IMG/VR virus record: IMGVR_UViG_3300033463_000088
Location: 1-64,000 of that record
Length of the DNA stretch: 64,000 bases
Reading direction: 5' to 3' (one strand)
From: a virus
Lineage: Duplodnaviria; Caudoviricetes
The notes below the pieces were generated by a model. That model searched no databases and had not been told where the DNA came from. It worked only from the letters and a program-made list of their open reading frames with translations. Below are positions 29,817 to 64,000 of this stretch, in pieces. The translations under genes and the position numbers were made by a program. Numbering within the stretch: position 1 is the first letter of the stretch; the number at the start of each line of letters is the position of its first letter.

Positions 29817-32800
29817 ATGAATCTAATCAGACGTCAATTATTAAAATTAATGCCAGTGGGTCATACCCTTGAAATCATTGCTGACAGTAGTTATGTTGGC
29901 AAGGTTTTTTATTGCACTTGTAAATATGATGGTCGAGTAGTTTCTGGTTCATGGATTATTTCATATGGCGACCAATTCGCGTCTATTAATGAAAATGGTA
30001 AAGTTACTATTTATGAAGACGTTCTTGGTGAAGATATTGAAATCACCTGTACTTATGAAGATTCTATTGCCGTTGTTGAAATTAATATTTCTTATGATAA
30101 CCAATTAACTATTGAATGTGCCGACACAATTACAGGCACTTCTGGTAATGCTTTTGCAAGATATAATTCTACTGTTGTTACTCCTACTTGGTCTATTACT
30201 TCTGGTGGTGCTTATGCTTCTATTGATGCTACAGGCGCTATCACAATTACTGATTCAGGCCAAATAACTTTACAGGCTGTGTATACAACATATACTACTA
30301 CTAAAACTATTAATGTTGTATACGACGCCGGAACTACTACTGAAACAACACTTGGTGATGATGGCTCAGTTACTACAGAAACAACTACTACAACAACTGA
30401 TCCTGAAACCGGAGCTGTTACAGAAACAACTACTTCCCAAACAACAAATGAAGATGGCTCTACAAGTTCTACTTCTATTGAAACAACTACTAATGAAGAT
30501 GGTTCGAGTTCAACTACTTCTACTACTACAAATTCTGATGGTTCAAGTAGTGAAACAACTTCTACTACCTCTGCTCCAGACCCAGAAACAGGTGCTGTCA
30601 CAACCGAAACTAGCACTTCTACAACAAATGCTGACGGAACAAGTAGTGAAACAACTGCAACCATAGTTGAAAATGAAGATGGTTCAAGTGAGTCAAGTTC
30701 CGAAACTATTCACTATGATGAGAACGGCGACGTCGCAGGTTCCACCGAAAATACAACTACTGTTAATACAGATGGTTCCAGCACAAGTCAAACAAACAAC
30801 TACGATGAAAACGGCGATCCGACATCAACAACAAATAATGATGTTGACGCATCTGGTAATAGTTCAACACAAGAAATTGAATATGATGATAATGGTGATC
30901 CTGTTGTCACCGAATATACTATCGATACTTCAGGCGGCAGCGGTGATGGTAAAGAGATTGAAGATGGTATCAATACTGAATACTATGCCTTCGACACAAC
31001 TAGAGGCTTTATTTTAGACATTGACTTTGTTATTGACTTTGCTCATCAACCAGCAAACCAAAACGAAAATCACCATAATATTTTAACTGCAAAAAGAGCA
31101 AGCCCATCTCCTTGGTATGGCTTCCAAATTAGACAATCTGGCACCAATAAATACGTCCAATTAGGTACACAATTTGCAACAGGTAACAATACTAATACTA
31201 CAATTAGCCCAATTGGTATGACTAATAATATTGCTGAATATATTTTACAAATTACTTATGATCCAACTCTTGCTTCAAATAATTTTATTTGTCGAGATTT
31301 AAAATCAGGCAATATTGTTTTTAGCGCAAGTAATAAATTCCCGGACATTGAAGCTCTTAAATACTTAAAAGTCTGCTTAGGCTACGCGATGGATGAAAAT
31401 GGTGATCCGTATAGATATTCTAATATCGCTGTTAAAAACTTCTCCCTTGTTAAGTTATCTAATGTTCTCTCACCAAGTATTAGTAGTAATGGTCGTTATA
31501 TTATTATTACTACAAATGAAACAGGTGCTACAACATATTATAGATTAAATCAATCTGGCAGTTTCCAAGAATATACTGGACAAATTGCTATGGTTAATGA
31601 TACTACTGTTGAAGCTTATTCTATGTTAGATGGCTTCACAAGTGTAACTGTCTCAGAATATTGCACTTATACTGGTCTTAAAAAACCAACTATTTCTTGT
31701 GATGGCCAGCTAGTCACTATTACTTGTGATACAGTTGGCGCATCTATTCATTATAGACTAAATCAAACTGGTGAATATATTGTTTATAATGCTCCAATTA
31801 CTATCTTTGAAGATACTATTGTTCAAGCTTATTCTGAATTAGGCGGCGACACAAGTGAAACAGTTAGAGTAGTTTGTGTTTATGATGATGCTCATAACTA
31901 CGCGGAAGATTATTTAACATTTAAGATTACTTCTAACGGAACTGTTGTCTGGAAGTCTATTGGCTCAGGTATGGCTAAAACTATTCAATATAGTTTAAAT
32001 GATGGCGCTTGAACCGATTTAGCTGCAACTGGTGGTGGTGCAACTATTACAGTTTATACAGGTGATGAAATTAGATTTAAGGGCTCAAATACTGCTTATG
32101 CGAAAGATAAGTCTAACTATTCTGGTTTTACTGGTGGCACTGCTACTTTTGACATTGAAGGTAATATCATGAGTTTAATTCATGGTGATAATTTCAGTGG
32201 CGAAACAGCTTTAACTGCTACCTATGCATTCTGCTCTATATTTAAACAAGCGGCAGTTGTTAATGCTGAAAACTTAATTTTACCTGCAACTACATTGACT
32301 AATTACTGCTACAGAGCTATGTTTAGTAAATGTCCTAACTTAGTAGTTGCTCCGGCTCTTCCAGCTACTACATTAACAACAGGTGTTTATTGGTATATGT
32401 TTGAAGAATGCCCAATTACAACTGCCCCTGTTCTTAATGCAACTACATTAACAACTGAATGTTATGGTCATATGTTTACTGGTTGCGGAAGCTTAAATTA
32501 TATTAAATGTTTAGCAACAAGTATTAGTGCAAGTAAAGCTTTAGAAGGTTGGGTTACTAGTGTTGCCGGTGTCGGTACATTTGTCAAAGCTGATGGTATT
32601 GCTTGGTCTACTGGTGTTGCAGGCATTCCTTCTGGATGGACCACTTATGTTAATGGTCAAGAGCCAGAGCCAGAAGAGCAAGATGACGTCTGGAGAATTG
32701 GGGGTCAATCAGTTACATTACCTTATTCATTAAATGCTATTGACGGCCACTCATCTGGCTATGCTAAGGGAACTTATAACTTTGTTGTAACTACTACCTT

Positions 32801-34604
32801 AGATGCTGTTCAACCAACTTATTTACAATTTGAACATGCTGACCAATCTGCTGAAATCTATGTTAATAACTCCTTAGTTACTACACACTGGGGCGGTTAT
32901 AACTCATTCACAGTAGATATTACTAATTATATTCATTTAGGGTCAAATAAAATTCAAGTTTCTATTTGTAATACAACAAGAAATACTCTCGCCCCTTGCG
33001 CTGGTGACTTTAACTTTAACGCAACTCTCGGCGATGTCTATTTAGTCTCAGGTGCTATTTTACCTGATACTATTTACGGCTATGATGGCTTCTGGATTAG
33101 CTCAGTTGTTTCTGATGCTGCCGCAGCTGTTACTGTTAAAACTACTGTTGCAAGTGAAGCCACTGTTGTATTGACTGTCTCAGACGGAACTTATACATAT
33201 ACTGATAGTCAAACAGATACTGGAGATATTACATTTAACTTTACTGTTAATAACCCGCATCTCTGGAACGGAAAATCTGACCCATATTTATATGATTTCA
33301 CCTTAGAAATTTATGATGGCCAAGATTTATGTTTCACTTCTACAAGACCTTATGGCTTCAGATATTATAGTTATGTATTTAATAATACTTCTGTTATTCC
33401 AGGAGAAACATATACTGGCTTCTTACTTAACGGCGCGCCATATTTATTAAGGGGCGTTTGCATGCACCAAGACTTGGAATATAAAGCAAATGCTCTTACT
33501 TCTGCTGATATTGCCCATGACTTTGAAATTATTCAAGATTTAGGCTGTAATTTTATCCGAACTGCCCACTATCCGCATCCAAGAGAATTCTATGACTGAT
33601 GTGATGAATTAGGCATTGTCGTTCAAACAGAAACTCCTTGGGTCAATAAAGCTCAATCTACTTACCCAACTGATTATTATGACCACTTAGGTAGTCAAGT
33701 TAGAGACATGGTTACTCAACATTATAACCACCCATCTATTATTTTCTGGGGTTTAGCAAACGAAATTACAACTGATGATAAAACCTTCGCAAAAACAAAA
33801 ATTGAAGGATATAAAGCTATTATTAATACTTATGACACTTCAAGATATGTCGGCTATGTCGTCAGCCATAGCTATCCAAACGGCTTAGGCACATTCAATG
33901 ACCCAGATGTTGACTATATTGGTCAAAACTTATATGTTGGTTGGTATATTGATACAAATACTAATAACCCATCTTCAAGAATTAATACTTGTTTAGGTTA
34001 TGCTAATAATCATAATAAACCAATGGCTTTATCTGAATACGGCTGCGGTGGAACTCAACGTTGCCACTCTGTAGACTTTATGACAACTACTACAAGGGGC
34101 AACAATCCAAGACACGATATTGAATATAATATGTGATTACATGAAGGTCATATCGCGGCTATTAAGAATTATCCGCAACTTATCTATACATCACAATGGG
34201 TTTTATTTGATTTCGCGGTCACAAGTAGACAAGAAGGTTATACAATTTGTTTAGATGGTGAAAATACTTCTACAAATGAGGACTTAAAGAGACTAAATAA
34301 TAAAGGTCTTGTTGAAAGAGATCACGTCACTAAGAAAGATACATATTATTTATATAAAGCTTGGTGAAACCCAACAAGTAAGTTCGTTCATATCTGTGGC
34401 AAAGAGTTTACACTTATTACTAGTAGACAAGTTAAATGTTATACTAATGATGGTGATACATTAGACCTCTATATTAATAACACTTTAACTGAGACCGCTG
34501 CTGTCTCTGATAACATTGCAATATTTACAGCAAGAACATTCTCGTCTGGCGACGTTATTAAGGTCCAAGGCGCGACGGTTTACGACACTTGAACAATTGC
34601 TTAG
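29817..34604 (+). CDS. 1595-aa modular protein: Ig-like, T/S/D-rich linker, lectin-like, Fn3/CHB-like, LRR-like and C-terminal GH2 glycoside hydrolase
   Basis: Track fragments 29817-32012, 32169-33599 and 33708-34136 are one frame joined by TGA at 32010, 33597, 34134, 34365 and 34590; stop TAG 34602-34604; GH2 motifs GVCMHQD, RTAHYPH, FYD[W]CDELG, NHPSIIFWGLANE, SEYG. Confidence 0.85.
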
Positions 34605-34611
34605 ATAAAAT

Positions 34612-34639
34612 AAAAAGAGCTCAAATCGAGCTCTTTTTT
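34612..34639. terminator. bidirectional intrinsic terminator
   Basis: aaaaagagctc-aaatc-gagctcttttt between convergent genes. Confidence 0.85.
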
Positions 34640-34656
34640 AATACTTTTTATTTTAA

Positions 34657-35589
34657 TTAGGAAACAGTAACTGTTTCAGTTTTTTCTGTCTTTGTGAGTG
34701 TGACATCACCAGATGCAGAACCAGTTGAACTAATTGTAGCTTCAGTTCCTGAGAAGGTTGGTTGTGTAGAAGAAGCACTTGTAATTCCTGTAACAACTGT
34801 TGTGCTATCATATGTTGGAAGAGTAACAGAAGTTGGAGTATTAGCTTGGAAAGTATCAGCACCATGTGTAGCAGCTGTGAAACTATCAGAACCTTGTGTA
34901 AAGGAACCTTGTGTAAAGCTAATTGTTAAGACTTCACCGCTAACACTTGTTGTTAATGTTGGGGCAACAAATTGGTCTGTACCTTGTGTAAATGAACCGC
35001 CACTAAATGTTCCGCTTGTAAATGATGCGGCAGAACCAGCACTAACAGAACCATCAGTTAATTTAGTTGGAATAGAGCTTGTTGCTGGAGTAACTGTAAT
35101 TGTTGGAGTAGAAACTGTGCCAGCAGGAGTATAAGTAGCAGAAGCAGAAACAGAACCATTTGAGAATGATGCACTATCAGCAGTTGTAAATGAAACTGAA
35201 CCCGAAGCACTACTCTTATATGCTAATGAACCAAGTCCTTCAAAACTAACCTCAGTATCACCTAATTTTTCCCAAACATAACTTGGAGTAGAAGTATCAC
35301 TAACATCAACTGTAACATATTCAGCATAAATTGTTTTATTATTAACTGTATGAGGAACTAAATAAATTTTACCTTGTGTACCTGACGCAGCAACTAATGA
35401 ACCAACAATATCACTTGTGCCATCATTCCAAGTAACACCATAAGGCGTTTTATTTGCAGCAGTTGATTTAACAAAAGCCAATGTTCCAGCAGATAATTGG
35501 CTAATTAAACCTCTGGCTTCTAAGTCTTTTAAATCATAAGTATTACCATCTGGTAAAGTAATTTGTGAAATATAAACTTTGTCTGACAT
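34657..35589 (-). CDS. virion fibre/decoration-like protein
   Basis: ISQITLPDGNTYDLKD N-terminus; S/T/G-rich TPAGTVS and QPTFSG repeats typical of phage fibre proteins. Confidence 0.6.
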   Translation of the reverse strand: MSDKVYISQITLPDGNTYDLKDLEARGLISQLSAGTLAFVKSTAANKTPYGVTWNDGTSDIVGSLVAASGTQGKIYLVPHTVNNKTIYAEYVTVDVSDTSTPSYVWEKLGDTEVSFEGLGSLAYKSSASGSVSFTTADSASFSNGSVSASATYTPAGTVSTPTITVTPATSSIPTKLTDGSVSAGSAASFTSGTFSGGSFTQGTDQFVAPTLTTSVSGEVLTISFTQGSFTQGSDSFTAATHGADTFQANTPTSVTLPTYDSTTVVTGITSASSTQPTFSGTEATISSTGSASGDVTLTKTEKTETVTVS

Positions 35590-35603
35590 AATTTTTTCCT
35601 CTT

Positions 35604-36092
35604 CTACTTAGTTAGTTTTAAGTTATAAGTTCCATCTGGAAGAACTTCAACTTCCGCAGAAACTTTATTGTTCCATTTTGTTCTATCAGATGAACTGACA
35701 TGAGCAGAAGTATCTGTTATATGATTTTGTAGTTCATCTTCTAAATATTGAACTGAAGAACCTTGGAATAAAATTTGTTTTGTTGTAAATTCTCCAGTAT
35801 TTTTATTTATATTTAACTCTGTCATATTACAACTTTGGCCTGCGCCAGTAGTTGTTGAGTTAATATACTTATAATTATCGCCTTCAATTCTTGCTAATCT
35901 ATAGAATTTTCCATCTAAATATACAACAGAATTATTAGTGGCGAATAGTTTTTCTAGGTCTTCCTCTGGAATTTGACCAGAGACATCCTCAATGTCAATA
36001 ACAACATCTTTTGGCTTGCCCCCTTCAGAAGAAGCAATCTTGCCATCAGCATAGCCGCGGGCTAAGATATAAGTGGTCATATCTATTGCCAT
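35604..36092 (-). CDS. hypothetical structural-region protein
   Basis: 162-aa ORF with RBS. Confidence 0.6.
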   Translation of the reverse strand: MAIDMTTYILARGYADGKIASSEGGKPKDVVIDIEDVSGQIPEEDLEKLFATNNSVVYLDGKFYRLARIEGDNYKYINSTTTGAGQSCNMTELNINKNTGEFTTKQILFQGSSVQYLEDELQNHITDTSAHVSSSDRTKWNNKVSAEVEVLPDGTYNLKLTK

Positions 36093-36108
36093 ACTATATC
36101 CTCCCTAA

Positions 36109-36303
36109 CTACATGATTCCAAGTTGAATTTTTGTGATGTTTAACCATCTATCATTTTCTTCATCGTACATCCAGAGCATTGCAGTATCCATCTCTAAGA
36201 AGGTTGAGCCATTACCAAGTAATCTGTAATCTTTCTTTAATGGCTTTTTGTCAGTGCTAAGGCCACGGAGTTCGATGCAGCGTTCATTTACAGGACTAAT
36301 CAT
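36109..36303 (-). CDS. small hypothetical phage protein
   Basis: ELRGLSTDKKP...GNGSTFLEMDT...YDEEN..W pattern. Confidence 0.6.
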   Translation of the reverse strand: MISPVNERCIELRGLSTDKKPLKKDYRLLGNGSTFLEMDTAMLWMYDEENDRWLNITKIQLGIM

Positions 36304-36318
36304 ATCTGCTCGCCCTCC

Positions 36319-36576
36319 TTACCTTGCCGCCTGAGCATTCCAAGCTCTTATCTCTGCTTGGAGGTCAGGGTCTTCTAGAGATCTACCAGAGGCAACAGCC
36401 ATATACATTTTGTTATAGAAAAGAACAGCGGCATTTGATGGGTTATTATAAATCTGATTCCAGAGTTTAGTTAACTCATCTGCATGCTTTGCTGCATTAC
36501 TATACATTTGATTTCATTCTTCTTGTGTATAGTTCTTTGCTATTTGATCACGTCTAAATTCTTGACCTTCTGCCAT
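36319..36576 (-). CDS. hypothetical protein with in-frame TGA
   Basis: MAEGQEFRRDQIAKNYTQEE[TGA]NQMYSNAA...; extends the track ORF to an ATG about 20 nt downstream of the GCTAAATTA motif. Confidence 0.65.
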
Positions 36577-36620
36577 CTGATTACAACTTTCTCAAATAAT
36601 TTAGCAAATATTTATCTGTC

Positions 36621-37559: not shown

Positions 37560-37580
37560 ATATTTATTATACAATAAATA

Positions 37581-38040: not shown

Positions 38041-38044
38041 AATA

Positions 38045-39574
38045 TTATTCTCCTACTTTGCTTTCTAAAACAGCTAATCTTGTTTCAAGATCTTCAATTT
38101 TTTTCTTTTGGTCTTTTAATGCAAGAAGAGCAACATAAGCTAACTTAGCATCTCAAACACCTAATTTATGCTCTACTTCTCCAGTTTCTTGGTTTGGTAT
38201 TTCAGCATCTCTAATTAATGCATTACGATATCTTTCTGGTAAAGCTGCTTCTAAATCTTGTGCAATAACACCAATACCTATATTATGGTCTTCATCTGCC
38301 TTAAAACTAAACTCTACAATCTCTAACTTATCTAATAGACTATTAGTATCTAAAGTTGTAGGAGCAATATTTTCTTTAAGGCTTCTATCAGATGACATAG
38401 CATAGTATGAATTTCAGTTATTACTGTTAAACCAGGCTTCAGAGTGCGGACCACTTGCATTCTGATAAAGCGTTCCAGTAACAAATACATCACCTCTAAT
38501 AACTACACCTGTATCATCAAAAGCATCTATAAATCTAGAGGCAACACAGCCATTTGGATAGAAGCATCAACCATAATAGTTTGCGGTATCTGCAGGATGT
38601 ACTGAAGTTTGGGTACCAGGAATAAGAAGAATTGGAGCAGTCATACAAACTGGATTGCCATTTTTTGGCTGAATACCTAAGTCATTTGCAGACTCTCATA
38701 ATGAACTTCCACTACTAGAAGAACCTGTAGCATCATCACGTCATGCTGGATTACCATCAGCATCAGTTTTTCAAACTTTATATGCAGCAGATGCACCTGG
38801 CGCAGAGACATAGCCAGCTTGTGTGACTGTATTTGCATTTCAGGTATTATTGTCTGTAGAACTAATTGTTATTTCACCATCAGCAGATTTTGTTACAGTT
38901 GTGCTACCTCCACCCTTAATACTTAAAGTAGAATTACCACTTTGATTAGCTGTAAATGAAACAGCGTCAGTAGTGCCAGCTTGAATTTTAAATGTACCAT
39001 TATTAACTGTATAAGTAGAATTTTCCCATGGAACACTAACATATGCTTTACTATTTGAGTCTAATTGAACAGCATATTTTTTCGATTCACCTTCTGGTAA
39101 TGTATAACCGAGTTTAATACCACCAAGTGCACTGTCGGTAGCAGCTGATAAAGAATAAGCATTTGCACTTTCTGCAATTCCGTCTAATTTTGTTTTATCA
39201 GCAGCAGACATTAGACCCGCAGCAGACTGTGTAGCATTGTTATAAGTGGTATCACTATCAGAAGGAAGAGTAATAGTTTTTGTAGAAGCAGCTGTTACAC
39301 GTCCTTTAGCATCAACTGTAATATAAGGGACACTAAATGTTCCTTCATGACCTGGGCTAGCATCAGATGATGGACCATAACTATCAGCGCCAACGCCAGA
39401 ATCAGCTAATCTACTAGCATTTAAAGTTCCAGATGAAATATTACTAGCATTTAAGCCTGTTAAACCAGAGCCATTACCTAAAAGTGTTCCGCCAACAGTT
39501 AAATTACCAGATATATTTTCATCATCTGTTACTCTTAATTTACCACGAACTATTGTACTATTTAAATCAGCCAT
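38045..39574 (-). CDS. tail fibre/spike protein with C-terminal Peptidase_S74-type intramolecular chaperone
   Basis: Track fragments 38840-39574 and 38153-38398 join through TGA; SDRSLKENI chaperone start, IGVIAQDLE, C-terminal coiled coil; 509 aa. Confidence 0.8.
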
Positions 39575-39615: not shown

Positions 39616-42315
39616 TTAATTTTCTATTAACTTATTAATGCATACTGCACCAATTTTACTTAATTTTGCAGTTGATTGCCCTTCAATAACCTCATAAGTT
39701 GACACAAAATTACTCTTATCTATTGAGGTTTTTCCATAATTATAAGTGCTATCAACTTCTTCTATTCCAAGGCCAGTAAACCAAACTGTTGCATTACCAG
39801 AGGTATCAGTTCTATTAACCTGAACCCAGAAACCATAACTATCATTTTGTGCTGCGTACCTTGTATAAATATCAAAATGATGCCATTTACCATCCTTTAA
39901 TACTTCTTCACTTGTTGTTGTTGCAGCAGGTGCCCCACCTCAACTAGTATCTCCTTTTTTACCATCTAAATATCAAGTAACTGGAGATCAGTTATTGCTG
40001 TGCCCTAAAATATTAATTAAAGTTCCAGAATGAAGCTGTGCATCAAATGAAATATGATAGTATTTTCCATATGTAAATAAGCTGTTTGCAAATTGGAATC
40101 CAGCTCAATGTCCACTAATTTGTATTATATTATTATCAATAAAAGATGCACCTGGAAAATTAGTGCTATTTAGGTCTAAAAATTTAAAAGTATTAGATGC
40201 CTCAATAGTATTTCCAGTAAATAAATTTGCACTTCTATCAATAGCAGCTTTTCTATTATATTCAGCCACTATATCAGCGCTAGATAAGGTAGTATTATAT
40301 ATTTTAATATCTCCAATTATTCCATGGAATGTATAACTTCCAGCACCACTTCCACCATAATAACAAATATTTAAATTACCGGGCCATGTCGATAAATTAA
40401 CCCCAGTAAAAGCATAACAATGCCATGCATCATCAAGTAATGGATAATTATTGACTTCTCCATCTCTATATGCTGTGATACTTCCAGCACTATTATGATA
40501 CCAGCCACCCCCAGAATTAACTGCAGCAAAATAATATGTTGTGCTTGTATCTTCTGCCAATAACATTTTAGGATATGCACTTGAACTTGGATATTTAGCT
40601 CAAATAATAACAGTCCCCGTAGTTAAAAAACTAAAGTTAGATGTTTTTATATATTGATTTGTTTCTAATAAACTTAAACCTAATTTACCTGGACCACCAC
40701 TAGAGCTAACAGAAAGAGCATTGTTATAGAGATTGCCATTATAGCCATAACCACTGTTGTCTATTATCCTAGGCAGCTCAAAAACTTTTATATTAGTTAT
40801 ATAAATATTTCTTGATCTTACACCACTTGTAAAACCAGAGTCATCAAGAATCATTTTAGTTGCATCTGTTCATTGAGATGACTTATACTCAAATATTGCA
40901 TAACAAAACCCATTTCTTAACCTTAATGTATCAGCATAACTTTGTGCACAAATTGGAAAATCTCAATAATCTGTGTAGCTAGAAAAACCACTTACGTCGC
41001 AGGTAATAACATAATATTTACCAAATGTCATTTCTTTATTAAAATGAACATAAAAATAAGTATCACCATCACTACCGCTTGTATGTAAAGAACTAGCATT
41101 ATCTCGTACAACCCGGCCACCGACTGAAATGTCACTTACAAGATTGTCTGTTGGTTGATTAAAAATATCAGAGCAAACTGTTCTATTATTTTCTAAGTAA
41201 CAACAAGTTACATAAACTTCATTGCCAGCAGTAACATAAATACCAACTAAATGATCATTTGTGCTACTCGGACTTGTTTTTTGTTTGATACCCTCAACTT
41301 TACAAAGGTAGAAACCATCTCCTAAAGATTCAATAGATGTTCAATGGCTATTTGGAACACTTCCATCAACTTGTCCATTTCAAGCTGGAAAACAAATACT
41401 GTCTGTAATTGGCTCACTATTTTTTGATTTAATAATTGCTTGGAATGAACGGTATCCCCCATCAAAGATGTTTTCATGATATAATAAATATGGATTGGTT
41501 GCTCCAGCACTATTACCAAACTTATGAGAATAATTACTAAAACCAGGGTAGATATATTTTTTATCGGTATTTTGAGCATAATACCCTTGATTACCAGTTG
41601 AACCCCACTGACCTCAGCCACCGCTTGAAGAAGATGTATCAAATGTTGGATATGGTTCTACATTCGCAAGTATATTTATATTTTGCTCAAAATTATAATG
41701 TAAAACTAAACCCTTTGAAATTTCTTTTACTTCTTTTTGGGATAATGCATGGTCATAAATACGAGCATCATTTAAATAACCCGCAATAAATTTTTCACCG
41801 CCAGCATTACCACCAATATAAATATATGCACTTGATAGTGCTGGAACATATGAAGTTGTACCGGTTTTAACTAAAGCACCATCAACATATAACTTTAAAT
41901 TTGTTCCATCATATGTGCCACAAATATGATGTCAAATACCATCTTTAATTGCTGCACCTGAGTTAATATTTGTATTTGATGACCCATTAGAAACATTAAA
42001 ATATGGAATACCAGAGCTATTTATATCAATACCTACTCTAATATTATTCCAACTTGTCCCAGAAGTTCCTAAAACAAATATTTGTGATCAAGTTGAATGA
42101 CTTGTTGGAATTTTAGCTCAAATAGCAAGTGAGCAGCCATTAGAGCAAGATGATAAATCTAAAGCACTGCTATTTAAAATAGTAGAATTAAAATAATAAC
42201 AGCTTCCAAGTTTTCCAGAACTATTAACAGTTGCACCATTATTAGTTAAAGATATAGCTGAAGTGCCTTGATCATTTAAATTACCGTTAAGAGGCCACCA
42301 ATGTATTAAACTCAT
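39616..42315 (-). CDS. LamG/concanavalin-A-like lectin-domain virion protein (899 aa)
   Basis: LIHWWPLNG, GI[TGA]HHICGTYDG...LYVDG, YLNDARIYDHALS, second LamG IGDIKIYNTTLS; more than ten in-frame TGA and no TAA/TAG in the segments I translated. Confidence 0.8.
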
Positions 42316-42335: not shown

Positions 42336-45300
42336 TTATGAAAAGATAAAATCTAAGCAAGCTTCTGCAGAATTATATTGCATTGTGCAATTTTTAATTT
42401 GAACAGAAGCATCAGCATAAACTTGACCGCTACTATTTGCAGCAAATGCACTGCCGCTACTTCCAACTTCTAATCTATTATCACTTCTTATTAATGAACT
42501 TCCTGTATAAATACCAGAACTAAATCCACTATTTTCATTAATTCTTAGCCAACTATCACTGATATTAAATGCTCGTTTGCTATTCATATAGATATAAGAA
42601 TTAGTACAGAGATTAATAATATCATTCGCATCATTTTGTTGACTAATACATAATTCTGTACCACCTGCAGCGCCACTTGTTTTTAAAGTGATAGAAGCAG
42701 CATCAGAACTATCAGAGGAGGATTCTACATATGGATTTCAATAGATACCACCAGAAGTAGATAAGTTCTTAATGTTAGTAGCAGTAACATCACTAGCAGT
42801 AATATTACCATTTGATAAGTCTAATTTAATTCTTGCTGTTCCAGAGCCAATAAATGAAATAGTATTAGGACCTTGATCATGTCTAATACCCCAAGGATTA
42901 CTTGTTCCACCAAGAGTATCATAATAAATTCAGGTATCTCCAGCAGGTGAAGCATCGCCTCTGCCAGCTCCACTTTGTAATAAAGCATATCCAGGGCTAG
43001 CAGCATTATCATCACCAATTACATAACGAGCATTTGTTGCAGAACCAACACTTACATAAGCAGAATTATATGTTCTTAGATAAGAATCATTACCATTAGT
43101 TCCTCAAATTCTTGCAGGAGATGATGAGTTATTTTCATCGCCAGAAGATGAATTAATATATCCAGTTAAAAGATAACCATTACTATCTGTTCTAACAATC
43201 TTATCTGCTTCATTATTTCTTCCAGAATGTACATGAAGACCATCTACTTGATCAGCATTATCAGCATAAGCTACTCTACAGCCAGCATGAGCAGTATCAC
43301 CATTATAACCATATAATACCCAGTATGTTCCATCATGGTAAGTTTGAACATTATAAGCACTATCATGGTCATTTCTATATAATTTTGTTACGCCAGGTCT
43401 ATTAGCACTTGCTCTGTCTGCTTTTTCATCATAATTTGCAATACGAACTCATGATTGTCATGTACCACTATTTTTGCCACGAACAAATAAGCGACCATTT
43501 CGATAATCTTGTGCAATCTGTCCTACTCAACTATCACTATAAGATTGTACATATAATGCGCCATCACCAGTAGAAGCACCTAAGTCAGTAGATGGTCCGC
43601 CAGAGCTATAATAATAATGTCCATTTTTAACCGCATTATTAGCATTATGTTCAGCATTACTTTCATTTCCAGAATAGAAAGTAGTTCCATCAAAGTTATA
43701 AGTATGGTCTTCCCAAGGAACATTTACATATAATTTACCACTGCTAAGTCCTACCGCATAATTTCTATTAGTATTGTTGGTAGAAAAACCTAAGTGGTGT
43801 GTGCCTAAAAGTTCTGCACTTTCAGCCCAGGTTTCTCTTGCAGCAGCACTTCTCATAATATAAGCGCCAAGAGATTGTCTATTAACACCAATAGCAACAC
43901 CACCACCAACATCACTACCACTATAGCAGTCCATAAATAATCAATCTTTATATTGACTATTACTGTTGACAGTAGTATTCATCATTAAGGCACCAACTTT
44001 ATTTGTGCCAAAATAATTTGGATTTTGTTGACCGCCATTAGAGGTATAAGAACCAACAATAGTTGTATGGGTATGGTTACCAGCAGCAGCATCTGTCGCA
44101 CCAGTACCTAGTGGTCTCCATGTATCAGTATCAGTATCATCTCGCCATCCTGGATTACCATTAGCATCACACTTCCAAACTTGATTAGCATTATTTGCTT
44201 TTGTTGGTGCTGCAACATAACCGGCAACACCGACAGCATTAGCAGTCCAAGTATTTGTTGAGCTAATTGTAATTTCACCAGCAGCAGTTTTAGTAACAGT
44301 TGTTGCACCACCAGCAGCTAATTTAAGAGAAGCATTTGCATTTTGAGCGAAAGATACTGCCTCAGTACCTGCGTTATCTGTAACTTTAAAAGTATAAGTA
44401 TAATGATCATTATTATCTGTCCAAGGGACATTAACATAAGCTTTATTATTGCTATCTAAGACAACTGGATAATTTTTACCATTAGCACTATAGCCAAGTT
44501 TAATGCCACCTAAAGTGCCATCACCTGCAACTTTTAAATAATATTTAGTAATAGTTTCACTAATGCCACCTGTACCATAGCCACTACCAGTAGTAAGTGC
44601 TAAGCCATCACCAGCTTCATGGCTATGTGCTGTATTAGTATCTGTATAAGAAGAACTAATTGTAATTTCTCCAGAAGCTGCAGAAACAGTGACATTTGAG
44701 CCTGGTTTAATATTTAATGATTTATCTGAATCTTGGGTAAATTTAACAGCTTCTGTTCCATTACCTTTAATTTGGAAATACTTAGTATAATGAGTATCTT
44801 CATCATTATCAACCCAAGGAACATAAACACCTAATTTATCATTTTTATCTAACTGAACAGCATAGAATTTAGTGCTGCCACCAGCAGTGTATGTTGCAGC
44901 ATTAGTTGACTTAGTTTCATCTACTAATGCAACTTTATAGTCATAAGTTCCACTGCCAGTTCCAGCTGAACCAGACCCAATTAAACCAACACCTGCACTA
45001 TGTGAGTGTGAGGTATTTGTATTATCAGAAGCTGGTAACGTATAAGCAGTAACACCAGTAATATGTCCAGCAGCGTCAGCAGTAATTCCAGTTAAAACAA
45101 CTGTAGAATTACGAGTAGCTGTGCCAGAAGATGTTACTGTTATTGCACTACCACCGCTTGGTGTATAGTGATTTCCAACAGCAGTAACACTTGTATCAGT
45201 ATTATTATCTGTCCAAGGGACATTAACATAGGCGCTACCATCAGAGTTAGTTCTAACCCCATAATTTTTATTACTGCCAATTGTTACATTGTCAGTTGAA

Positions 45301-46067
45301 GCATTAACAGTGCTAACTTTAATACCGCCAATTTCATTAGTAGCTGCTTGCTTTAGTTCATAAGTAACTTTATCAGAGGAATTTATACCGCCAGTAGCAG
45401 AACCACTTGCAAATTTTAAACCAGTACCAACATCATGACTATGAGCAGTATTTTGTTCATCTGATGCTGGAATTTTAACTGTATGTTCAGAAATTTCAGT
45501 AACAATACCTTGAGCATTAACTCGGACATATGGAACTTTAAATGTAGAACCATAGCCTGGAGTTTGAGCAGAAGAATCACCATAAGCATTTGCTGTAACA
45601 CCAGAAGCTCCTAATGTAACAGAATGTAAACCTGATGTAGTTTGGCTACTTGAAGCAGTAATATCAGTTGAACCATCAGCTTTTTTACCAGAAACAACAG
45701 TAACACCATGAGAATTGTGTGTATTAGCCCAATAACTACCTTGCATTACCCAGCCTGTTCCATTATAAACTAATGTAACATACATATTTGCAGCAATATG
45801 AGTTGTGCAATATTCACCCGTACGATAATAGATACGTTTTGCATCTAAGCTATTGACTTTTAAAGTACAGCCGTCAGCTGTTGCAGCATTAAATTTAACA
45901 TTAATAGCAAGACCAGTGTAAAGAGCATCTACATCTGGAATAGATACAGTAAAAGCATTTGCTGTAGCAGAGGCAGTGTCATAAAACATTGTATCTTTAC
46001 TATCAGCAGGTAATGCTATATCATAACTTGTTGAACCTATAGTAAGTTGATCTATTCTATCAGCCAT
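42336..46067 (-). CDS. long tail fibre protein (1243 aa)
   Basis: Track fragments 43941-46067, 43527-43934 and 42336-42587 are one frame via TGA; repeated GGIKLGY...YAVQLD...YV.VPW modules; SGT[W]QS[W]VRI motif. Confidence 0.8.
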
Positions 46068-49000: not shown

Positions 49001-49133
49001 TAGTAACAGTAGAAATATTTGTATCAGTGCCATCAGTTGGTTTAGTAGTAGCGTCTGCAGCAATTCAACTTCTAAGTTTACTTAGCGCATTATCAACTTC
49101 TTGACCAGTAAATATACTTTGATACTCTGCCAT
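46083..49133 (-). CDS. tail fibre protein with many HxH motifs (1016 aa)
   Basis: ATG 49131-49133 after aaggag; TGA at 49065 and 46590 join the fragments; S/T/G/A-rich with repeated HTH/HSH motifs. Confidence 0.8.
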
Positions 49134-49157
49134 ATGCTGTCTCCTTCTTAAAATTAA

Positions 49158-49177
49158 TCTCGTATAATTTAGCAAAT
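49158..49177 (-). promoter_or_regulatory. candidate late promoter (copy 2 of the 20-mer)
   Basis: Exact reverse complement of 29305-29324, about 25 nt upstream of the tail fibre ATG. Confidence 0.6.
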
Positions 49178-49180
49178 AAT

Positions 49181-49833: not shown

Positions 49834-52596
49834 TTATTCAGCGTCAAATTTTGTGCCAGCGACGGACCAAAGACCAGCATTATTTTTGCCAAAGACTAAT
49901 ACATAATGTGTTCCATCAACATTAACTTGGTCACTTCCGCCTAAAGCTGCACGATAATCTTTACCATCAATAATAACAGTGATAGGAAGTGTAATTGGAT
50001 TACCTGTTGCATTATAGTTAGCACCATTAGAACCTTGACCAGCGACTAGAGCTGCAGTAGTAATTTGTGCACCTGTTGTAGTAGCAGTTGGGAAGTCTTC
50101 ATCAGCATAAGCTGCAACCTTGATTTCAACAAGATTTTGGTCTGAATTAACTGTAAATGACATTAAATCAGCATAAGTAGTTAAATCAGAAACTGTTCCC
50201 TCATTGACTGTTTTTCTAAGAACATGAACACAACTGATTCTTTCATTTGAAACATTACTAATAGTAATTTCAGCAGTATTTGGGTTATAAATGAATGAGC
50301 TAGAAGTTAATGAAGTTACGTTACCAGCATCATCTTTTAATTTACCATAAATAGTTTTTGTTTCACCGTTAGCATTTGAACCGCTATTCGCAGTGCAATA
50401 TAATGTATCAGTAGTAATTGAAGCTGCAGTTAAGGTTGTTCAAACAGCATTTGATTCAGTAACTTGAGTGCCACCATCTGTTAAGGCAAAGTCACCTCAA
50501 ATTTTATATTGAACATGACTGTAAACGTCTGTTGCATCTTCATTATAAGTAATAATAACTTTAAATTCTTTATCAGCAGTTGGAGAGATTTTAGCTGTAG
50601 TACCATCAGTTTCTCTTAATACAAGAGTTCCAAGAGGTGGAGTATCGTCATATTCTCATGTTAATGTTTGAGTTGCGATATTACCAGCTTTATCTTTAAC
50701 TTCTACAATAGCACCATATGTACCACTGCCTAATTGGGAGTCAAGCTCTAGGGTATAAGTACCATTAGCTCAAGCAATCCAACCATTAGTAGCGCCACTT
50801 GCAAATGTTGTTCCAGAAGCAGCAGTAATTCTCATTTTATCAACACCGTCATTAAAGTTATCTGAAATATTTGAGACAGAAATATTTATTGATGGGCTAT
50901 TTGTTGGAACACTAGTTACAATAGATGCATTAAATTCTGGAGCAGTATGGTCAACAGTAAATTGAATATGTTTATAAGCAACATTACCAACCTGGCTAAT
51001 TGCTTTAACATGTAAGAAGTTTGTAGCAGAATCTGCAACAAAAGCTTTTACAATACTAGATGATGCAACTTCTTGAGAAGCATTTGTCCAAGCAATTAAG
51101 TTAGCACCATTTGCTGGAGTTGTATCATTAGCAGTTGTATTTGTCCAAACTTGTAAATTTGCACGTCCTGAACCTGGAGCTGTTGAGTTGTTAACTGTAA
51201 CAGTAATAGCATTTTCAGTAGCGGCACGATAATAGTATTGATAAGCTTCATATCCACCCAAAGCTAATGAATCGATTTCAAATGACTCTTCTATATTTAC
51301 AATAACAGAATCTGATGTTGTATTTCCAGAATTATCTGTTGCAACAATTCTAATAGTATAAGCTCCTGCAGCGCTTGGTGTTTTATCAGCTTGTGCAATT
51401 TGTGCAACGCCAAAACTAAAACTTCCACCAGAAATTTCAGTTAAGGTTCTCCATTCACCTTCAGAGCCCTTCTTATAACTAAATGCTGGACTACCAGAAG
51501 CTAGACCAGAAGTAGCATCAGAACAAGTATAAGAAATAGTAGCACTATTGATTGTACCATAGCCAGCAGCAATCCATTCATTACTTCTTGAAATAGATAC
51601 AGCTGGAATAGTTGCATCATAAACCCTTGTAACAGGATTTGCAGTAGAAATATTGCCAGCAGCGTCTTTTAATTTAACATTAACAGTTTTAGTACCATCA
51701 GTAGTAGTAAAAGCTAAGCTAGAAATAGTAATAGAAGTTGTTGCTGGTGTTGTTTGAGGTCATGTATGCCAAACAGCAGTTTCATTATTTTGAATATCAC
51801 CATATAATTGATATTCAATAATATCAGTATCATTAGTATTGATAATGGCAACAAAGCCGTTATTACTTGCGTTTAAATATTGAATTAAATCATTTTGATC
51901 ACTAGCATTTGCTTTTAATGTTGTAGTAACTGTTGCAATACTTGTATCTAAATAAATAGTGCATTGACTTGTTGCAGAGTTGCCAGATCTATCATAAGCA
52001 GTAATAGTAAGAGTTTTATTACCATCTAAGGTTCCTTGCGGAAAACTTAAAGTGCCTTCATAAACATGAGTAGTAGAATTAAAGCTTGATTCATTAATAG
52101 TAACAGTGCTTGTAAAGTCAGCACAGGCAATAGTAACTTCTCTTAAACCAGATTGAATTGTGCCGGAATCAGCTGCTTCAATATGAATACCAAAGGTTAA
52201 ATCATTTGTATAACTATGGTTAGAAGTATTATCTAAGTCATAAGCATATAATGTTGCACCAATAGTTGGAGCGACAGTATCAGATCTAACTGGACCGGAA
52301 TGTTTAATAGCAGATGTATTACCAACATCATCCATAAAGATTGCATGTAAATAATAGTTTCCATCTGCATTAAAAACAACATTATAACTAGAAGCAGCAG
52401 GAACCCAGTTTAATCCACTTGGAACAGATGCAGTACTATTACTATCATCTGCCCAAACTTTCATATACGAGGCACCATCTGTATTAAACTCAGCAGTAAT
52501 ATTATTTTTAACCAACGCTTGCGTTGTAGGTGAAGTAAAAGCAGCGGCATTTGGCGCTACAGTGTCTAAAGTTAACTTAAAATTATTTGCAGACAT
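49834..52596 (-). CDS. Ig-like repeat virion protein (920 aa)
   Basis: Fragments 51760-52596, 50770-51261 and 49834-50163 are in one frame; repeated D..GN / DT.AP Ig-like motifs (DGTKTVNVKLKDAAGN). Confidence 0.75.
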
Positions 52597-52738
52597 TGGT
52601 TTTTCTCCTTTAAATAATTTGAATTATCAATTAATTTAGCTAATTTTTAGCAATTTAGCTATTTTTTACTTTGTAAAAAACATCAGAGACAACATTAGCA
52701 TTAATATAACCCTCTATACCATTATTAGTTCTAATGTG

Positions 52739-55700
52739 TCACATTGGCTGTAATCTACCTCTCAAAGTTAGATTCATATCTATACCATCTAATGCTTCTA
52801 GTATCTCAACAGTAGAATTTTCTTTTGCTTGACCTTGACTATAATGTAATACAGCATTGCCAGATTTAACATAATGAGTTTCATTATCAATAACTACTTT
52901 ATTATAGATATCAGCATCATTATATCTAACAAAACCATAAGTAGTACAACCTGGGAACCAATTTGTATAGCCATTAAATTCACTAATTCGCTCGCCACCA
53001 GTTTCAAGATCAAGTCTAAAATAAGTTTTAAATGTTTGATCTCTTAGTCTATATAAAATTTGTTCTGCATTTTGAGCAGAAATATTATTTCCTAAGATAG
53101 TTCTAATATTACCTGCCCCAAAAATATGAACACGTTTTAATAAATAACCATTAGGTCTTTTAACACACATATAAGGACCTGGTCTACTAGGTATTGGATC
53201 TGGTAAAGGTTCAACAAAGCTATTACTTTGTCCCTCGAAAATTGAATTAAGAGACCAGAATCTTGCAGTTAACCAGTCAACTAAAAAATCTTTTGCGTCT
53301 ACTTCAGTTGCCATACTCCAATGAATACTTCTAATATTAGTTATTGGGTGAACTCCAGTAACATAAGCAATACCCATAATAATTAATGGTTTAGGTTCTA
53401 AATTTCAAGTTTTATTAGCATTCCAAGCCCAACCAATATCTCATTCTCTAAAATTAAATTCAAAGTCATATAATAAGTCATTAGAATATTTTTCTAGCAT
53501 ATTAATGCATTTTCTACAGAAAGCGCTTTCTCATAATGCCTGTCATTTTTGTTTAACGAGATTTCTAAATCATTCTGCATTAGGTAACATATTGACCCAA
53601 GGATTTAAAGTACAGTCTTGAATATAAGATGGACTATTTACTGGGTCTTCAACAAAGAATGGGACAGTTCCCATTGCTAAGTCAAAATCTCATGGAGCTG
53701 TTAAAGTAAGCTTCTTATCACCAGTTTCTGACATATCTAAAGAAAAGTGAAATGAGCTATGTCCAACGTCAGGGTTACAAACAATCTCTTGTAGTATAAA
53801 AGTTTCTACAAAAGAATCAATATTAATAATTTTACCCAAAACTTCTATTGGATTTGTAGAGGTACTAAAAGATAGATTATTATTATCATCAAGTTCATAA
53901 TAACGTTGATTATGAACCGCTTCATACATAATTCTATAAATCTTTTTCATACGTTCTTTAAGAAATGAAACTTGCATAGGTGAAGTAATAGTGCTTTTTA
54001 TAGTATAGCCGTCTCCATCTAATCTTGTTCCACCATCTTGTCTTGACCAAGTATTTGGTTTAGTACTGATGTATCCTGGACGTTGAGGTAAGTATTCATT
54101 TTCTTGAATAAAGAAAGTTGGGTCAGTCTCGGTTCTAAAATAGTCATCTCTTTCAAAGAAATAACCAATGTCTGTTCCTGCATAGCCATCTTCTGGCTCA
54201 AATACATTAACACGTTCTGGATTTTGCTCTTTATTATCACAGAGTAAATATAAACCTTGATAGTAACTTTTACCTCCAGCTTCAATATATAAATGAACAA
54301 ATTTAAAAGTTGGAACTCATTGATGATCACAAATCTGCTTAGCCATAAAAAAGCTTAATGCATTTCTTAGCATAGAATTATCACAATATTCTGCTAATAA
54401 TACCCATTTTTTATTCTTTTGACCATTATTTAATCCAAATAAATTTTGTTTTTTATTAAATCTAATTTGAAAAGCCTTCTTAGAATAGAAAGCAGTATAA
54501 TTACCACGAATTTTAACATCAGCTTTAACATCATGTAGTATAAATTTACTATCACAATTACTTGTACTTAATTTTCCGTCAGCTCTTGGATGCGGAGTAT
54601 CTTTTTCAGTCAAACTATACCAGTCTTCAAAGTTATCATAAAGATTATCTTCACAAGTAAATGGCTCATTAAAAGTAAAGGTTAATATTGGAGCGGTTAA
54701 ATGCTCCTCAAGTTTAAATCCATTAAGTGTTAGCTTAATTGCATTAAATCTAGTACTTACTCAGCTTTTCAAAAGCTGCTTAGCTTCAGCTTCTGTTGTA
54801 ATCGAATCATAGAAACTAGTTCTAATACTACCTATATTAACTGGGTTAACTTCTGTTAAATCAAATGCCCATCTAATATTTCATCTACTAAAGTTTAAGG
54901 CGAAGTCATCTACATAGGTGTCAGAATAATCATCTAACATATTAAGACACTTGTTAAAAATATCTGCTTGTTCTAATTGTTGATATCTTGCTTTTAATAA
55001 AGTAATAAATCAATCTGCCTGAGGTAACACAGATACTCATGGGTTATAATGGCAATCTTTACACCATAAAGTAGTTTGTCCAGCATTTTTTAAACCATTA
55101 CATAAACCAAAAGTTCTATCATGGTCTCATGGACATGTCAGAGCCAATTTTTTGTTTCCAGTTGGAGACATGTCTAATGAAAAATAAAATGATGAGTGAG
55201 CTAAGTCAGGATCACCGACAGCTTCACAAATTAAAATCATATCAATAAATGAATCTAAGTCAATAACTTTGCTGACTACTTCTACTGGATTATTTGAACT
55301 ACTAGGTACTAAAGTTCAAGATTGCCAGTCTGCTATATTTGAAGAGCTAATTTCATAATAAGCTTGATTTACACACGCTTCATATAAAATAGTATAAGTT
55401 AATTGAAAATACTTTTTAGCAAAGTCCTTTTGATCTTGGCTATAAACTTTATTATGAATAGTATAGCCATCAAGTTCTGGTGCATCAACACCATGTGAGC
55501 TATCTGTTTCATGACCAATTACTGGTAAAACATCTGGATAATACTCAGTTGGATATTTAATAACAAAGTTATTTGGTTCTTGATTATAGTAGTCATCACG
55601 TTCAATATAATAACCAATATCAACGCCTGTATAACCTGCTTCTGGCTCAGGTAGATTAATACGATGCTCGTCTATTTCCTTCTCATCACAAAGTAAATAT

Positions 55701-56161
55701 AAGCCTTGATATTCATTATCAATATAAATTTGAACAAAAGTAAAAGTAGCGGCCCAATGGCCTCTTAAAATTTGTTGTCCCATATATAATGCTAAGGCAT
55801 TTCTTAGCATTGAGTTGTCACCATAATCAGCTAATAAAATCCAATTTGTAGCAGCATGTCCATGATTTAAACCAAAAAGATTTTGAGGAGTGCTCAATGT
55901 AAGTCTAAATGGCTTTTTATTATACATAGAAGTATAATTACCACGAACCCTTATAGTTGCAGAAATATTCTGTAAAATAAAGTTGCTATCACAATTACTA
56001 GTTGAGACAGTTCCAGGAACCTCAGAACGAGGCTCACGTAGACGTTGTGCATTATACCAAGATTGTCATGAATTAAAAGAACTGCTACTCTCAATAAATG
56101 GAGTTCGGCAAGTAAAATCTAATCTAGGAGCTGAATTAAAAATAATATAATCTTTGGACAT
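52739..56161 (-). CDS. tandem CotH-family kinase protein (1140 aa)
   Basis: ATG 56159-56161; two copies of VRGNYT..KK.F...LFGL....W.LLA.Y.DNSMLRNAL...QGLYLLCD...CP[TGA]DHD / AP[TGA]DFD; all track fragments fall in one frame. Confidence 0.8.
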
Positions 56162-56164
56162 AAA

Positions 56165-56809
56165 TTAGTTATTTGGATTATCTGAAATAAAATAAATTGT
56201 TCCTTCATTTAATTTTCCAGCATTAATGACATCACTTTGGTATTCTGCAAAAGTGCCATACCAGAATTTAGAGCCATATAAAGCTGCAGTTTGTTCAACC
56301 ATAGCTGCAGTATTAGCTTCATTAGTTGCAGCAGCGGTTGCAGCACCTCTAGCATTAGTAGCTTCTTGAGCTGCTCTATCTGCTTGTGCTTGTGCTGTAG
56401 ATATTGCATTATTTAATGCAGTTTGGTCAAGTGTTCTTTGCCAGCTTAAACCACCATTATTAGCCATTGGGAATAAACCGTTTTGACTTGCTTCGCCTGT
56501 AAAGCCTGCAATTCTAAGACCATCTTCACCATATTCAATACTTTGACCATCAGCAAGAGCTTTGGCTTCCCATTGGTCTGTAGTTTCATTATAAATTAAA
56601 ATTTGTCCGTCGAGAGCGTCTTCAATTTCAATGCCACCACCAGCAACATAATCTAAATCTTCATAATTATGAATACCATCGCCAATCTTTAGCTTTTTAG
56701 TATCCATTTCAAAGATTGGTTCGCCCTCTTTTGGTTTATTATCACCACTGAGGAAGGTAATTAAAGCACTACGATTACCGCGTTTTATTTGAATAACTTC
56801 AATTTTCAT
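56165..56809 (-). CDS. Mtd_N (major tropism determinant N-terminal)-like tail protein
   Basis: IQIKRG...P.EGEPIFEMDT.KLKIGDG..NY.DL.Y. Confidence 0.7.
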   Translation of the reverse strand: MKIEVIQIKRGNRSALITFLSGDNKPKEGEPIFEMDTKKLKIGDGIHNYEDLDYVAGGGIEIEDALDGQILIYNETTDQWEAKALADGQSIEYGEDGLRIAGFTGEASQNGLFPMANNGGLSWQRTLDQTALNNAISTAQAQADRAAQEATNARGAATAAATNEANTAAMVEQTAALYGSKFWYGTFAEYQSDVINAGKLNEGTIYFISDNPNN

Positions 56810-57435
56810 TACTCTATTCTACCTCCATCAATTGTAATTTCTAAATTAGCTACTGCAGAAGCTAAATCTGCTTTAGTAGCTGCTTCAGTTTTTGTATATA
56901 CTTCTGACTTCTTTGCATAAGTTATAGCAGCATTAATTTTTGTCTCAGCTTCTGCTTTTGATGCTGCACCAATATCTTCTGGTGTTAAATTTACAACGCC
57001 AGTTTTACCATTAATAGACTCAACACCAACATCAGCGCTAATAATACCATTTTGAATTCTAATATGGTCACCAGCAACTAAACTAGAAGATTCTGCTAAT
57101 TCTTGAAGTCTATTTCTAACCTCTTCGCTTAAGTCTTCTCAGCGAATTTCTTTTCTAAGAACTGTTGTAGCAACAATTTTTGTTGGCTTTCCATTATCAT
57201 CAATATATAAATAAGCTTCATTTGATAAATTATCAATAGTAATATCTTCAACAGATTCAGAATCTTTTAATGCAAAAGGAACATAAAGCTTAGCAATATT
57301 TTCTGATAATGTTTTAAGCTTTAAGTCAGAATAATCAGTTTGTTGACGAGTGGCAGACTGACACTCCTTTACAGAGGCAGTCGTGCTATTATCAACTACT
57401 GTAGGTTTAACAGGTTTTGGGATTTCTCTTGGCAT
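56809..57435 (-). CDS. tail/fibre-associated protein (208 aa, TGA read-through)
   Basis: Track ORF ends at TGA 57139; the frame continues through VESINGKTGVVNLTPEDIGA to a TAA overlapping the next ATG. Confidence 0.7.
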
Positions 57436-57446
57436 AAGTTATCTCC

Positions 57447-57650
57447 CTATAAATCAATTTCAATATAATCTTTTACTTGGCCCTTATTACCAAGATTTAC
57501 AGATTTAGTAAAAACTTTTCCAGTAACAGTATTTTTTAAAGCTTTTCCTTCTGCAGGATACAAAACATAAGCTTCTGTAAGTGCTGTTCTAAGAATTTTA
57601 CGATTTTCATCAAGAATATTTGTAATAGTTTGAATAATATTAATTGTCAT
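57447..57650 (-). CDS. small hypothetical protein
   Basis: 67-aa ORF with RBS. Confidence 0.6.
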   Translation of the reverse strand: MTINIIQTITNILDENRKILRTALTEAYVLYPAEGKALKNTVTGKVFTKSVNLGNKGQVKDYIEIDL

Positions 57651-57661
57651 AAAATTTACCT

Positions 57662-63600: not shown

Positions 63601-64000
63601 TACCAGTGACAGTTGGTCTAATTTCTCAGTTTTGCCAAGCCATATCAACTGATAATGGGTCTCCAATTGTTTCACCATCAATATATTGAATAACAGTAGA
63701 ATTATTTAATCCTGGTGTATATACACGGTATCTAATATTAAATGCAACATATTGTTCTTGTTCTGACTCACTAGGGAATGTAGAAGCAATAATTGGTGTT
63801 TGATTACCTGCAACATAGCAGATTAAGTCATAGTTTAAGACATTAGATGTAACTAAGTCTTCACCTAAAACTGCAGTAAAATAAACACTTAAAGTATGAG
63901 CACCATGAGCTTGTGCTGGAATAATCTTTGTGCATTGTTCACCAGTTGTTTTAATAACATCTTGTCCAATTTCTCTTCCATCAACAATAAAGTGAACTGT
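57662..64000 (-). CDS. giant (>2100 aa, 5'-truncated) virion protein: Ig/LamG-like, CotH-like kinase, LRR, InlB-B-like repeats, BspA LRR
   Basis: Fragments 61952-63562, 61571-61903, 59873-61552, 59255-59797 and 57662-59242 are one frame joined by TGA (e.g. FLG[W]Y, NR[W]FWLPYDMDT); QGTSS.YY.RKNFK, K.D.ASSEGANN, VDSRAKN; IG..AF..C..L repeats at the C-terminus. Confidence 0.8.

Follow-up and report, generated by a model that had tools for sequence, protein, structure and literature searches.

A large tailed-phage fragment with TGA recoded to tryptophan, concentrated in its late genes

How is a phage genome translated when its replication genes can be read in the standard genetic code and its late genes are interrupted by TGA? 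This question is raised by IMG/VR virus record IMGVR_UViG_3300033463_000088 (Duplodnaviria; Caudoviricetes). The window analyzed here is the first 64 kb of this record, a single virus contig of 75,080 bp. A first-pass annotation, made from the sequence alone, had proposed that TGA is read as tryptophan (Trp, code 4) across 29.8–64 kb, with a bias toward late and structural genes. In the reading preferred here, which is assigned a probability of roughly 0.75, the contig is a fragment of a TGA-to-Trp recoded phage whose early genes are readable in the standard code and whose late proteins become full-length only after a change in decoding.

The extent of recoding was assessed from coding density, calculated from greedy open reading frame (ORF) models built under the standard code (code 11) or with TGA as a sense codon. 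Between positions 29300 and 64000, density under code 11 is 0.782, in 47 fragments, and rises to 0.985, in 19 genes, once TGA is treated as a sense codon. Between 1 and 29300 there is no change (0.957 vs 0.959). Control models in which TAG or TAA was recoded instead gave a smaller gain and extra ORFs. The fused frames are also found in related phages. A DNA polymerase query identified IMG/VR contigs at 49–79% identity, and five of these relatives, referred to as G001–G005 (DNA polymerase identity 49–66%), were compared whole. The region 29817–34604 is collinear with a single G003 ORF across 1604 aligned aa (69% identity), the region 57662–64825 is collinear with single ORFs in G001 and G003 across about 2450 aa, and orthologs of the Big_13 protein at 49834–52596 align across 867–969 aa. 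Consequently, the claim that code-11 fragments merge into long frames when TGA is read through was borne out.

Chance does not account for these frames. At 34% G+C, simple arithmetic gives one TAA or TAG per approximately 18 codons in a random frame, so a frame of 1595 codons open by chance is excluded. The gene ends inspected in the first-pass annotation were TAA or TAG, and this is true of every modelled gene. Because the 3′ ends are the same under codes 4 and 11, no gene of the early block stops at TGA. There are 75 in-frame TGA codons and no in-frame TAA or TAG, a pattern common to six independent assemblies. In this phage, TGA is a sense codon and never a terminator. The window therefore needs annotation under code 4, as code 11 leaves the 47 fragments and loses a GH2 fusion protein, a tandem CotH protein, and a leucine-rich repeat (LRR) protein of 2387 aa. 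The recoded block proposed for 29.8–64 kb holds over that range, but it does not end at the window edge and runs to about 71.4 kb of the contig.

To determine the amino acid read at TGA without bias, these codons were rendered as X in all alignments. Facing the TGA codons of the relatives, this phage carries Trp at 56 of 107 positions, followed by Ile, Phe, Thr, and Tyr, with Gly at 2 of 107; the background Trp frequency is 0.9%. In the opposite direction, the relatives face the TGA codons of this phage with TGA (11), Trp (9), and Phe or Tyr (8), and with no Gly. The substitution spectrum of TGA mirrors that of TGG. An independent test is offered by the CotH protein, where 9 of the 13 TGA sites tested, both P-W-D sites included, are occupied by Trp in 99–118 of 120 database homologs. 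The other four sites hold Tyr, Phe, or Ser, and Gly occurs in no CotH column. Orthologs in relatives and CotH homologs thus provide two separate lines of support for TGA as Trp, and by these comparisons Gly and selenocysteine (Sec) can be regarded as excluded, in agreement with the first-pass annotation.

Individual motifs had also been cited in favor of Trp, and most of them hold. In addition to the two CotH PWD sites, the DGI[TGA]HH site of the LamG protein (cited as WHH) aligns with Trp of PDB entry 4qvs, and the FLG[TGA]Y site corresponds to Trp in G001. Of the five TGA columns in the giant LRR protein, four are occupied by W or TGA in the related phages. The TGA columns of the Big_13 protein hold W, Y, F, T, or C in orthologs. 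The GH2 motif FYD[TGA]CDELG was rejected as a conserved Trp site, since the position is Leu in the nearest PDB homologs and Met in the G003 ortholog.

The distribution of TGA along the contig is strongly uneven. The ratio of in-frame TGA to TGG is 3/111 in the early block, where only one TGA is verified by homologs, and 75/166 outside it (Fisher p = 2e-13 with one early TGA and 2e-11 with three). Uniform use, which together with a native code-4 host had been named beforehand as an argument against a timing model, is therefore not what is found. The earlier description of a replication block using TGG almost exclusively is accurate, but the block is not wholly free of TGA. The scarcity is not compositional, as 731 out-of-frame TGA triplets occur in the early genes. 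In virion and surface-binding genes, TGA accounts for 26–45% of Trp positions; genes carrying TGA make up 30% of the total in this phage and 24–42% across the clade. The bias toward virion genes recurs in each of G001–G005, with 0–8% TGA in replication orthologs and 21–77% in late orthologs, and the DNA polymerase genes of all six genomes lack TGA altogether. That the bias is retained in the replication orthologs of five relatives speaks for selection rather than accident.

The verified exception in the replication block is a candidate RecU-like resolvase gene (9841–10317, minus strand), which aligns with its orthologs across 153–158 aa and is the only TGA-bearing gene of the block confirmed by homologs. 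Its Pfam RecU score of 21.7 bits lies under the cut-off of 25. At the position of the TGA at 10150–10152, G001 and G005 likewise have TGA, G004 has Trp, and both G002 and G003 have Phe. The orthologs in G001, G002, and G005 carry TGA, so four of six genomes have a TGA in this gene. A hypothetical gene at 19230–19589 (minus strand) has, by translation, a probable in-frame TGA at 19554–19556, and no homolog of this gene was found. Other candidates were set aside: the TGA at 6679–6681 was rejected as coding because orthologs begin downstream, and the two TGA triplets at the start of 69508–69975 and those in 74443–74706 are probably not coding.

Decoding machinery was sought in the relatives as well as on the contig. 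G001 (146.5 kb, 64% complete) is syntenic with this contig, G002 (223.5 kb, with direct terminal repeats) and G003 (237.4 kb) are complete, and G004 and G005 are fragments. In all five, coding density increases when TGA is treated as a sense codon, for example from 0.718 to 0.926 in G002 and from 0.699 to 0.933 in G003. The TGA/TGG counts in G002 are 4/0 in the portal gene, 3/0 in the prohead protease gene, and 5/2 in the tail sheath gene. Each of the two complete genomes has 20–30 tRNAs, including a 75-nt tRNA(UCA) with discriminator G73 and an ordinary cloverleaf, whose anticodon loop, CU-UCA-AA, matches the CU-NCA-AA pattern of the phages' own tRNA-Trp(CCA). Both also encode a tryptophanyl-tRNA synthetase (TrpRS; TIGR00233, 304 and 317 bits, cut-off 176.75). 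Directly beside TrpRS lies an N-terminally truncated Lon protease (L088:2336-3814, minus; L087:192-1415, plus; TIGR00763, 706 and 557 bits). The TrpRS and truncated Lon genes are located within 1–3 kb of tRNA(UCA); all of these genes are TGA-free and lie next to the TGA-poor block. When IMG/VR was scanned for exact matches to the pattern of this tRNA(UCA), three contigs only were returned, none of them closer to this phage. In G001, a tRNA-like gene at 48045–48118 (inside L063) has an unusual anticodon loop and is labeled "Asn|Stop" by ARAGORN with a two-base anticodon.

These observations suggest how expression might proceed. The early genes, which serve replication, recombination, and nucleotide metabolism, would avoid TGA both as a codon and as a stop and would consequently be readable by an unmodified host ribosome. 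Virion and surface-binding genes would be truncated until a Trp-charged tRNA with a UCA anticodon is present. The phage would then supply a Trp-accepting tRNA(UCA), perhaps aided by its own TrpRS, and full-length late proteins would appear only once the phage has altered the decoding of TGA. The idea that recoding times late expression is taken from the literature and may apply here. That the recoding is phage-driven is supported indirectly, by the tRNA(UCA) and standard-code TrpRS beside a TGA-poor block in the complete relatives and by the share of only 24–42% of genes with TGA. By analogy with these relatives, the missing two thirds or so of this genome presumably supply both tRNA(UCA) and TrpRS.

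Several results weigh against this picture. The search proposed in the first-pass annotation, for a tRNA(UCA), a TrpRS, and a release factor, succeeded for the first two in G002 and G003 and gave no suppressor tRNA on the contig itself. No tRNA or tmRNA was found on the 75-kb contig. Rfam searches, at the gathering threshold on the whole contig and at E <= 1 on the right end, which is non-coding, revealed neither a tRNA nor GOLLD, ROOL, or any other credible family. The UCA anticodon is also absent from a 12-tRNA array past the right end of the contig and from the 39 tRNAs of G001, the closest large relative, in 146 kb (64% of its genome). A release factor 1 (RF1) domain was not found in the five records searched, those of both complete relatives included. 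The presence of TrpRS is not specific to a code change, since an IMG/VR scan shows it in many jumbo phages that lack TGA recoding. Finally, the early/late partition is not absolute: one or two early genes contain TGA, and several late genes, among them 34657–36303 and 56165–56809, contain none.

The recoding may also be real without a regulatory purpose. Under A-T pressure, TGG would change to TGA wherever a phage suppressor makes the change harmless, and early genes would be TGA-free only since they are read before the suppressor builds up, which amounts to a constraint and not to an evolved timer. This explanation is possible, though on balance doubtful. It agrees with the rise of TGA among Trp codons as G+C falls, from 22–24% at 32–34% G+C (G000 and G001) to 49% at 29% G+C (G002 and G003), and with the patchy use of TGA among late genes, of which the holin-like gene at 70050–70394 has none. 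The conserved TGA of the RecU-like gene within the early block hints, on the other side, at gene-specific use. For the rest, constraint and timer predict the same pattern, and sequence cannot separate them. The chance that TGA stands for Gly (code 25) or Sec, or that the frames are pseudogenes or assembly errors, is negligible. Although ARAGORN calls the relatives' tRNA(UCA) "SeC", it does so solely from the anticodon, and the molecule has an ordinary length and fold with Trp-like features. The rarity of Gly opposite TGA and its absence from the CotH columns contradict code 25, and the uninterrupted frames shared by six independent assemblies contradict decay or misassembly.

A further explanation places the code change in the host, which would itself read TGA as Trp in the manner of Mycoplasmatales, the TGA-free early block having another cause, such as recent acquisition. 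The nearest named cellular relatives of the phage TrpRS (59–62% identity) belong to Mollicutes-like lineages, namely a "Bacilli bacterium" metagenome-assembled genome (MAG) and Anaeroplasma sp., and among 20–39 tRNAs a tRNA(UCA) could be a mere part of a full set. However, the loci of these two relatives (L114 and L116) contain 21 and 37 TGG codons but not a single in-frame TGA, and TGA terminates just 1 of 24 and 0 of 18 genes in these low-G+C loci. By their sequence, both loci follow the standard code and rarely stop at TGA; hosts of this kind would be little harmed if TGA were suppressed. Native code 4 in the host is also difficult to reconcile with the non-uniform use of TGA and with TGA-poor replication orthologs retained across six diverged genomes. 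A phage of 150–240 kb is, moreover, large for a host genome of <=1 Mb. Genes with in-frame TGA make up 26–71% in recoded phages whose hosts use the standard code and about 90% where the host code is shared (Borges et al., bioRxiv 10.1101/2021.08.26.457843), and the 30% of this phage and 24–42% of its clade fall within the former range. Recoding inherited from the host is, in light of this, decidedly improbable.

Recoding driven by the phage itself, the preferred reading, is compatible with what can be said of the host. Shine–Dalgarno-like motifs precede 45 of 67 genes, compared with a background of 6%, and the DNA polymerase is nearest to those of phages of Streptococcus and Clostridium. The named CotH homologs are MAG proteins of Ruminococcus, Lachnospiraceae, Clostridia, and Bacilli. 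Taken with the TrpRS relatives and the share of genes with TGA, these features point to a host that is probably a standard-code member of the Bacillota. As a separate observation, the CotH homologs comprise proteins of rumen Ruminococcus and Lachnospiraceae MAGs and one protein from the anaerobic fungus Orpinomyces.

The phage belongs to a known class, the gut phages with TGA recoded to Trp. Both the phenomenon and the timing hypothesis have already been published, and no new question is opened by this case. The code-4 gut phages of Borges et al. (2021/2022) include Jade (about 210 kb) and Agate (about 127–154 kb), the latter with cattle samples among its sources (bioRxiv 10.1101/2021.08.26.457843). 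Those phages and the present one have in common that TGA aligns with Trp and that structural genes are recoded while the replication machinery is kept in the standard code. In the Borges phages, lysis genes are recoded too, and the predicted hosts are standard-code Firmicutes (bioRxiv 10.1101/2021.08.26.457843). Their suppressor tRNA(UCA) occurs in some genomes only; here it occurs in the complete relatives. Two Jade genomes combine a standard-code TrpRS with the suppressor, as do G002 and G003. Unlike the Borges phages, the complete relatives yielded no RF1, and they have a truncated Lon beside TrpRS. By size and content, this phage is closest to Jade and Agate; the contig has no terminase, the gene on which placement in these clades depends.

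Other recoded systems are similar in part. The crAss-like and Lak phages read TAG as Gln (code 15) (Yutin et al. 2021, PMC7886860; proved by metaproteomics, PMC9523058). Similarly to the present case, they reassign a stop mainly in late genes and carry their own suppressor tRNAs, but the codon and the amino acid are different and their hosts are Bacteroidota, whereas here strong Shine–Dalgarno-like motifs and Firmicutes-type relatives are found. A survey of rumen and gut jumbo phages (Anim Microbiome 2026, PMC13037316) describes TGA or TAG recoding in hallmark genes, with suppressor tRNAs in about 61%. No preference for protein type was seen in that survey, whereas the early/late split here is sharp and kept across relatives. 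For a phage of the code-25 type, known from Absconditabacteria or Gracilibacteria, TGA would be expected to align with Gly, in contrast to the Gly counts reported above. Mycoplasma, Spiroplasma, and their phages decode UGA as Trp with a tRNA-Trp(UCA), sister to tRNA-Trp(CCA), which resembles the situation here. Native code-4 systems use TGA genome-wide, whereas in the present phage TGA is excluded from some 40 early genes.

The value of this clade lies in comparison. Its six diverged genomes, with TGA at 22–49% of Trp codons and a TGA-poor replication core, form a set in which the spread of stop-codon capture can be followed, and its complete members combine tRNA(UCA) and TrpRS with no RF1 found. 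More speculatively, the code change may gate DNA processing in addition to virion genes and, as a separate matter, the truncated Lon might lower competition from release factor 2 (RF2); both proposals are unlikely to hold. If the former were true, the RecU-like TGA could make the resolution of junctions, and packaging, dependent on the switch. If the latter were true, the truncated Lon that neighbors TrpRS and tRNA(UCA) would, in a clade where no RF1 was found, represent a novel means of imposing a code change, by lowered RF2 competition.

The gene map of the window follows this division. The replication and nucleotide-metabolism block occupies 1–29214 on the minus strand and is readable under both code 11 and code 4. 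According to PHROGs annotation, it encodes a family-A DNA polymerase with sliding clamp and two clamp-loader subunits, a primase, a DnaB helicase, SSB, a UvsX-like recombinase, SbcD, and an exonuclease. The sole plus-strand unit is a cassette at 29348–34604, which contains the GH2 multidomain protein (29817–34604, 1595 aa, 5 TGA). Its C-terminal part is a GH2 glycosidase with Pfam GH2 N, middle, and C domains, and GH2 enzymes in the PDB match it at E 3e-69. A bidirectional terminator-like hairpin at 34612–34638, recognized by consensus match only, has a stem of 11–12 bp with T runs on both strands and separates this cassette from the minus-strand late genes.

From about 34.6 to 71.4 kb, the genes on the minus strand are for large proteins of the virion and of surface binding. 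One is a tail fibre (38045–39574; phrog_1980; TGA 7, TGG 2) that has an S74 chaperone domain (Pfam Peptidase_S74) and is matched by the phrog across residues 98–507, which span TGA sites. It is followed by the LamG-domain protein (39616–42315; Laminin_G_3 4.9e-35, PHROG virion structural protein; TGA 13, TGG 10). Inside this gene, ARAGORN run with introns called a 493-nt "tRNA-Ser", which is implausible and was disregarded. Next is a 1243-aa protein of no known family (42336–46067; TGA 7, TGG 14), with short matches only, to G001. The 1030-aa reading frame at 46083–49175 contains two TGA codons, and its homologs cover residues 15–171 only. One in-frame TGA, at 46590–46592, is directly followed by ATG and may be a gene boundary, giving either two genes or two products depending on read-through.

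The remaining large late genes, also on the minus strand, are the Ig-like Big_13 protein already mentioned (Pfam; TGA 5, TGG 9), the tandem CotH-domain protein (52655–56161; Pfam CotH 1.2e-58; TGA 15, TGG 16), and the BspA-type LRR/Listeria-Bacteroides-repeat giant, which extends from 57662 to the window edge at 64000 and on to 64825 (LRR_5 1.2e-73; TGA 5, TGG 34). The CotH protein has two CotH kinase-like domains, and a PDB sequence search with it gave no match. The late region also encodes a Cthe_2159-domain protein and a small cluster with the holin-like gene.

As to the wider genome, CheckV estimates completeness at 33%, and the contig represents about one third of a jumbo or large tailed phage. 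No terminal repeat was found on the 75,080-bp contig, nor any capsid, portal, or terminase gene, and it likewise lacks counterparts of the G002 prohead protease and tail sheath genes. The whole virus is probably 150–240 kb in size and derived from a rumen or gut community. An exact overlap of 127 nt between the right end and a JGI contig is read as a sign that the latter adjoins the contig there in the assembly. The same phage was found in another sample, with 99.9% identity across 11.4 kb at the left end, and that assembly also spans the right-end junction. The sequence past the right end carries Thg1-like, Band_7, and methyltransferase genes, followed at about 4.3 kb from the contig end by the 12-tRNA array (Ala, Pro, Thr, Ala, Pro, Val, Arg, Thr, three Lys, Thr; L119 155–1967, L120 5591–7403), all TGA-free. 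Judging from synteny with G001, a second, larger tRNA array should sit about 10 kb beyond it. Past the left end, gene calls on an ENA contig include SbcC, peptide deformylase, and topoisomerase I, intact in the standard code.

At the right end of the contig (73906–75080; L001 16906–18080), about 1.1 kb is almost without coding potential, and no Rfam family matched this region. It is variable between strains, with approximately 850 nt here replaced by about 230 nt in L120. A motif of about 30 nt within it (73961–73995; L001 16961–16995) recurs at several sites in G001, G002, G003, and G005 and may be a regulatory or promoter element.

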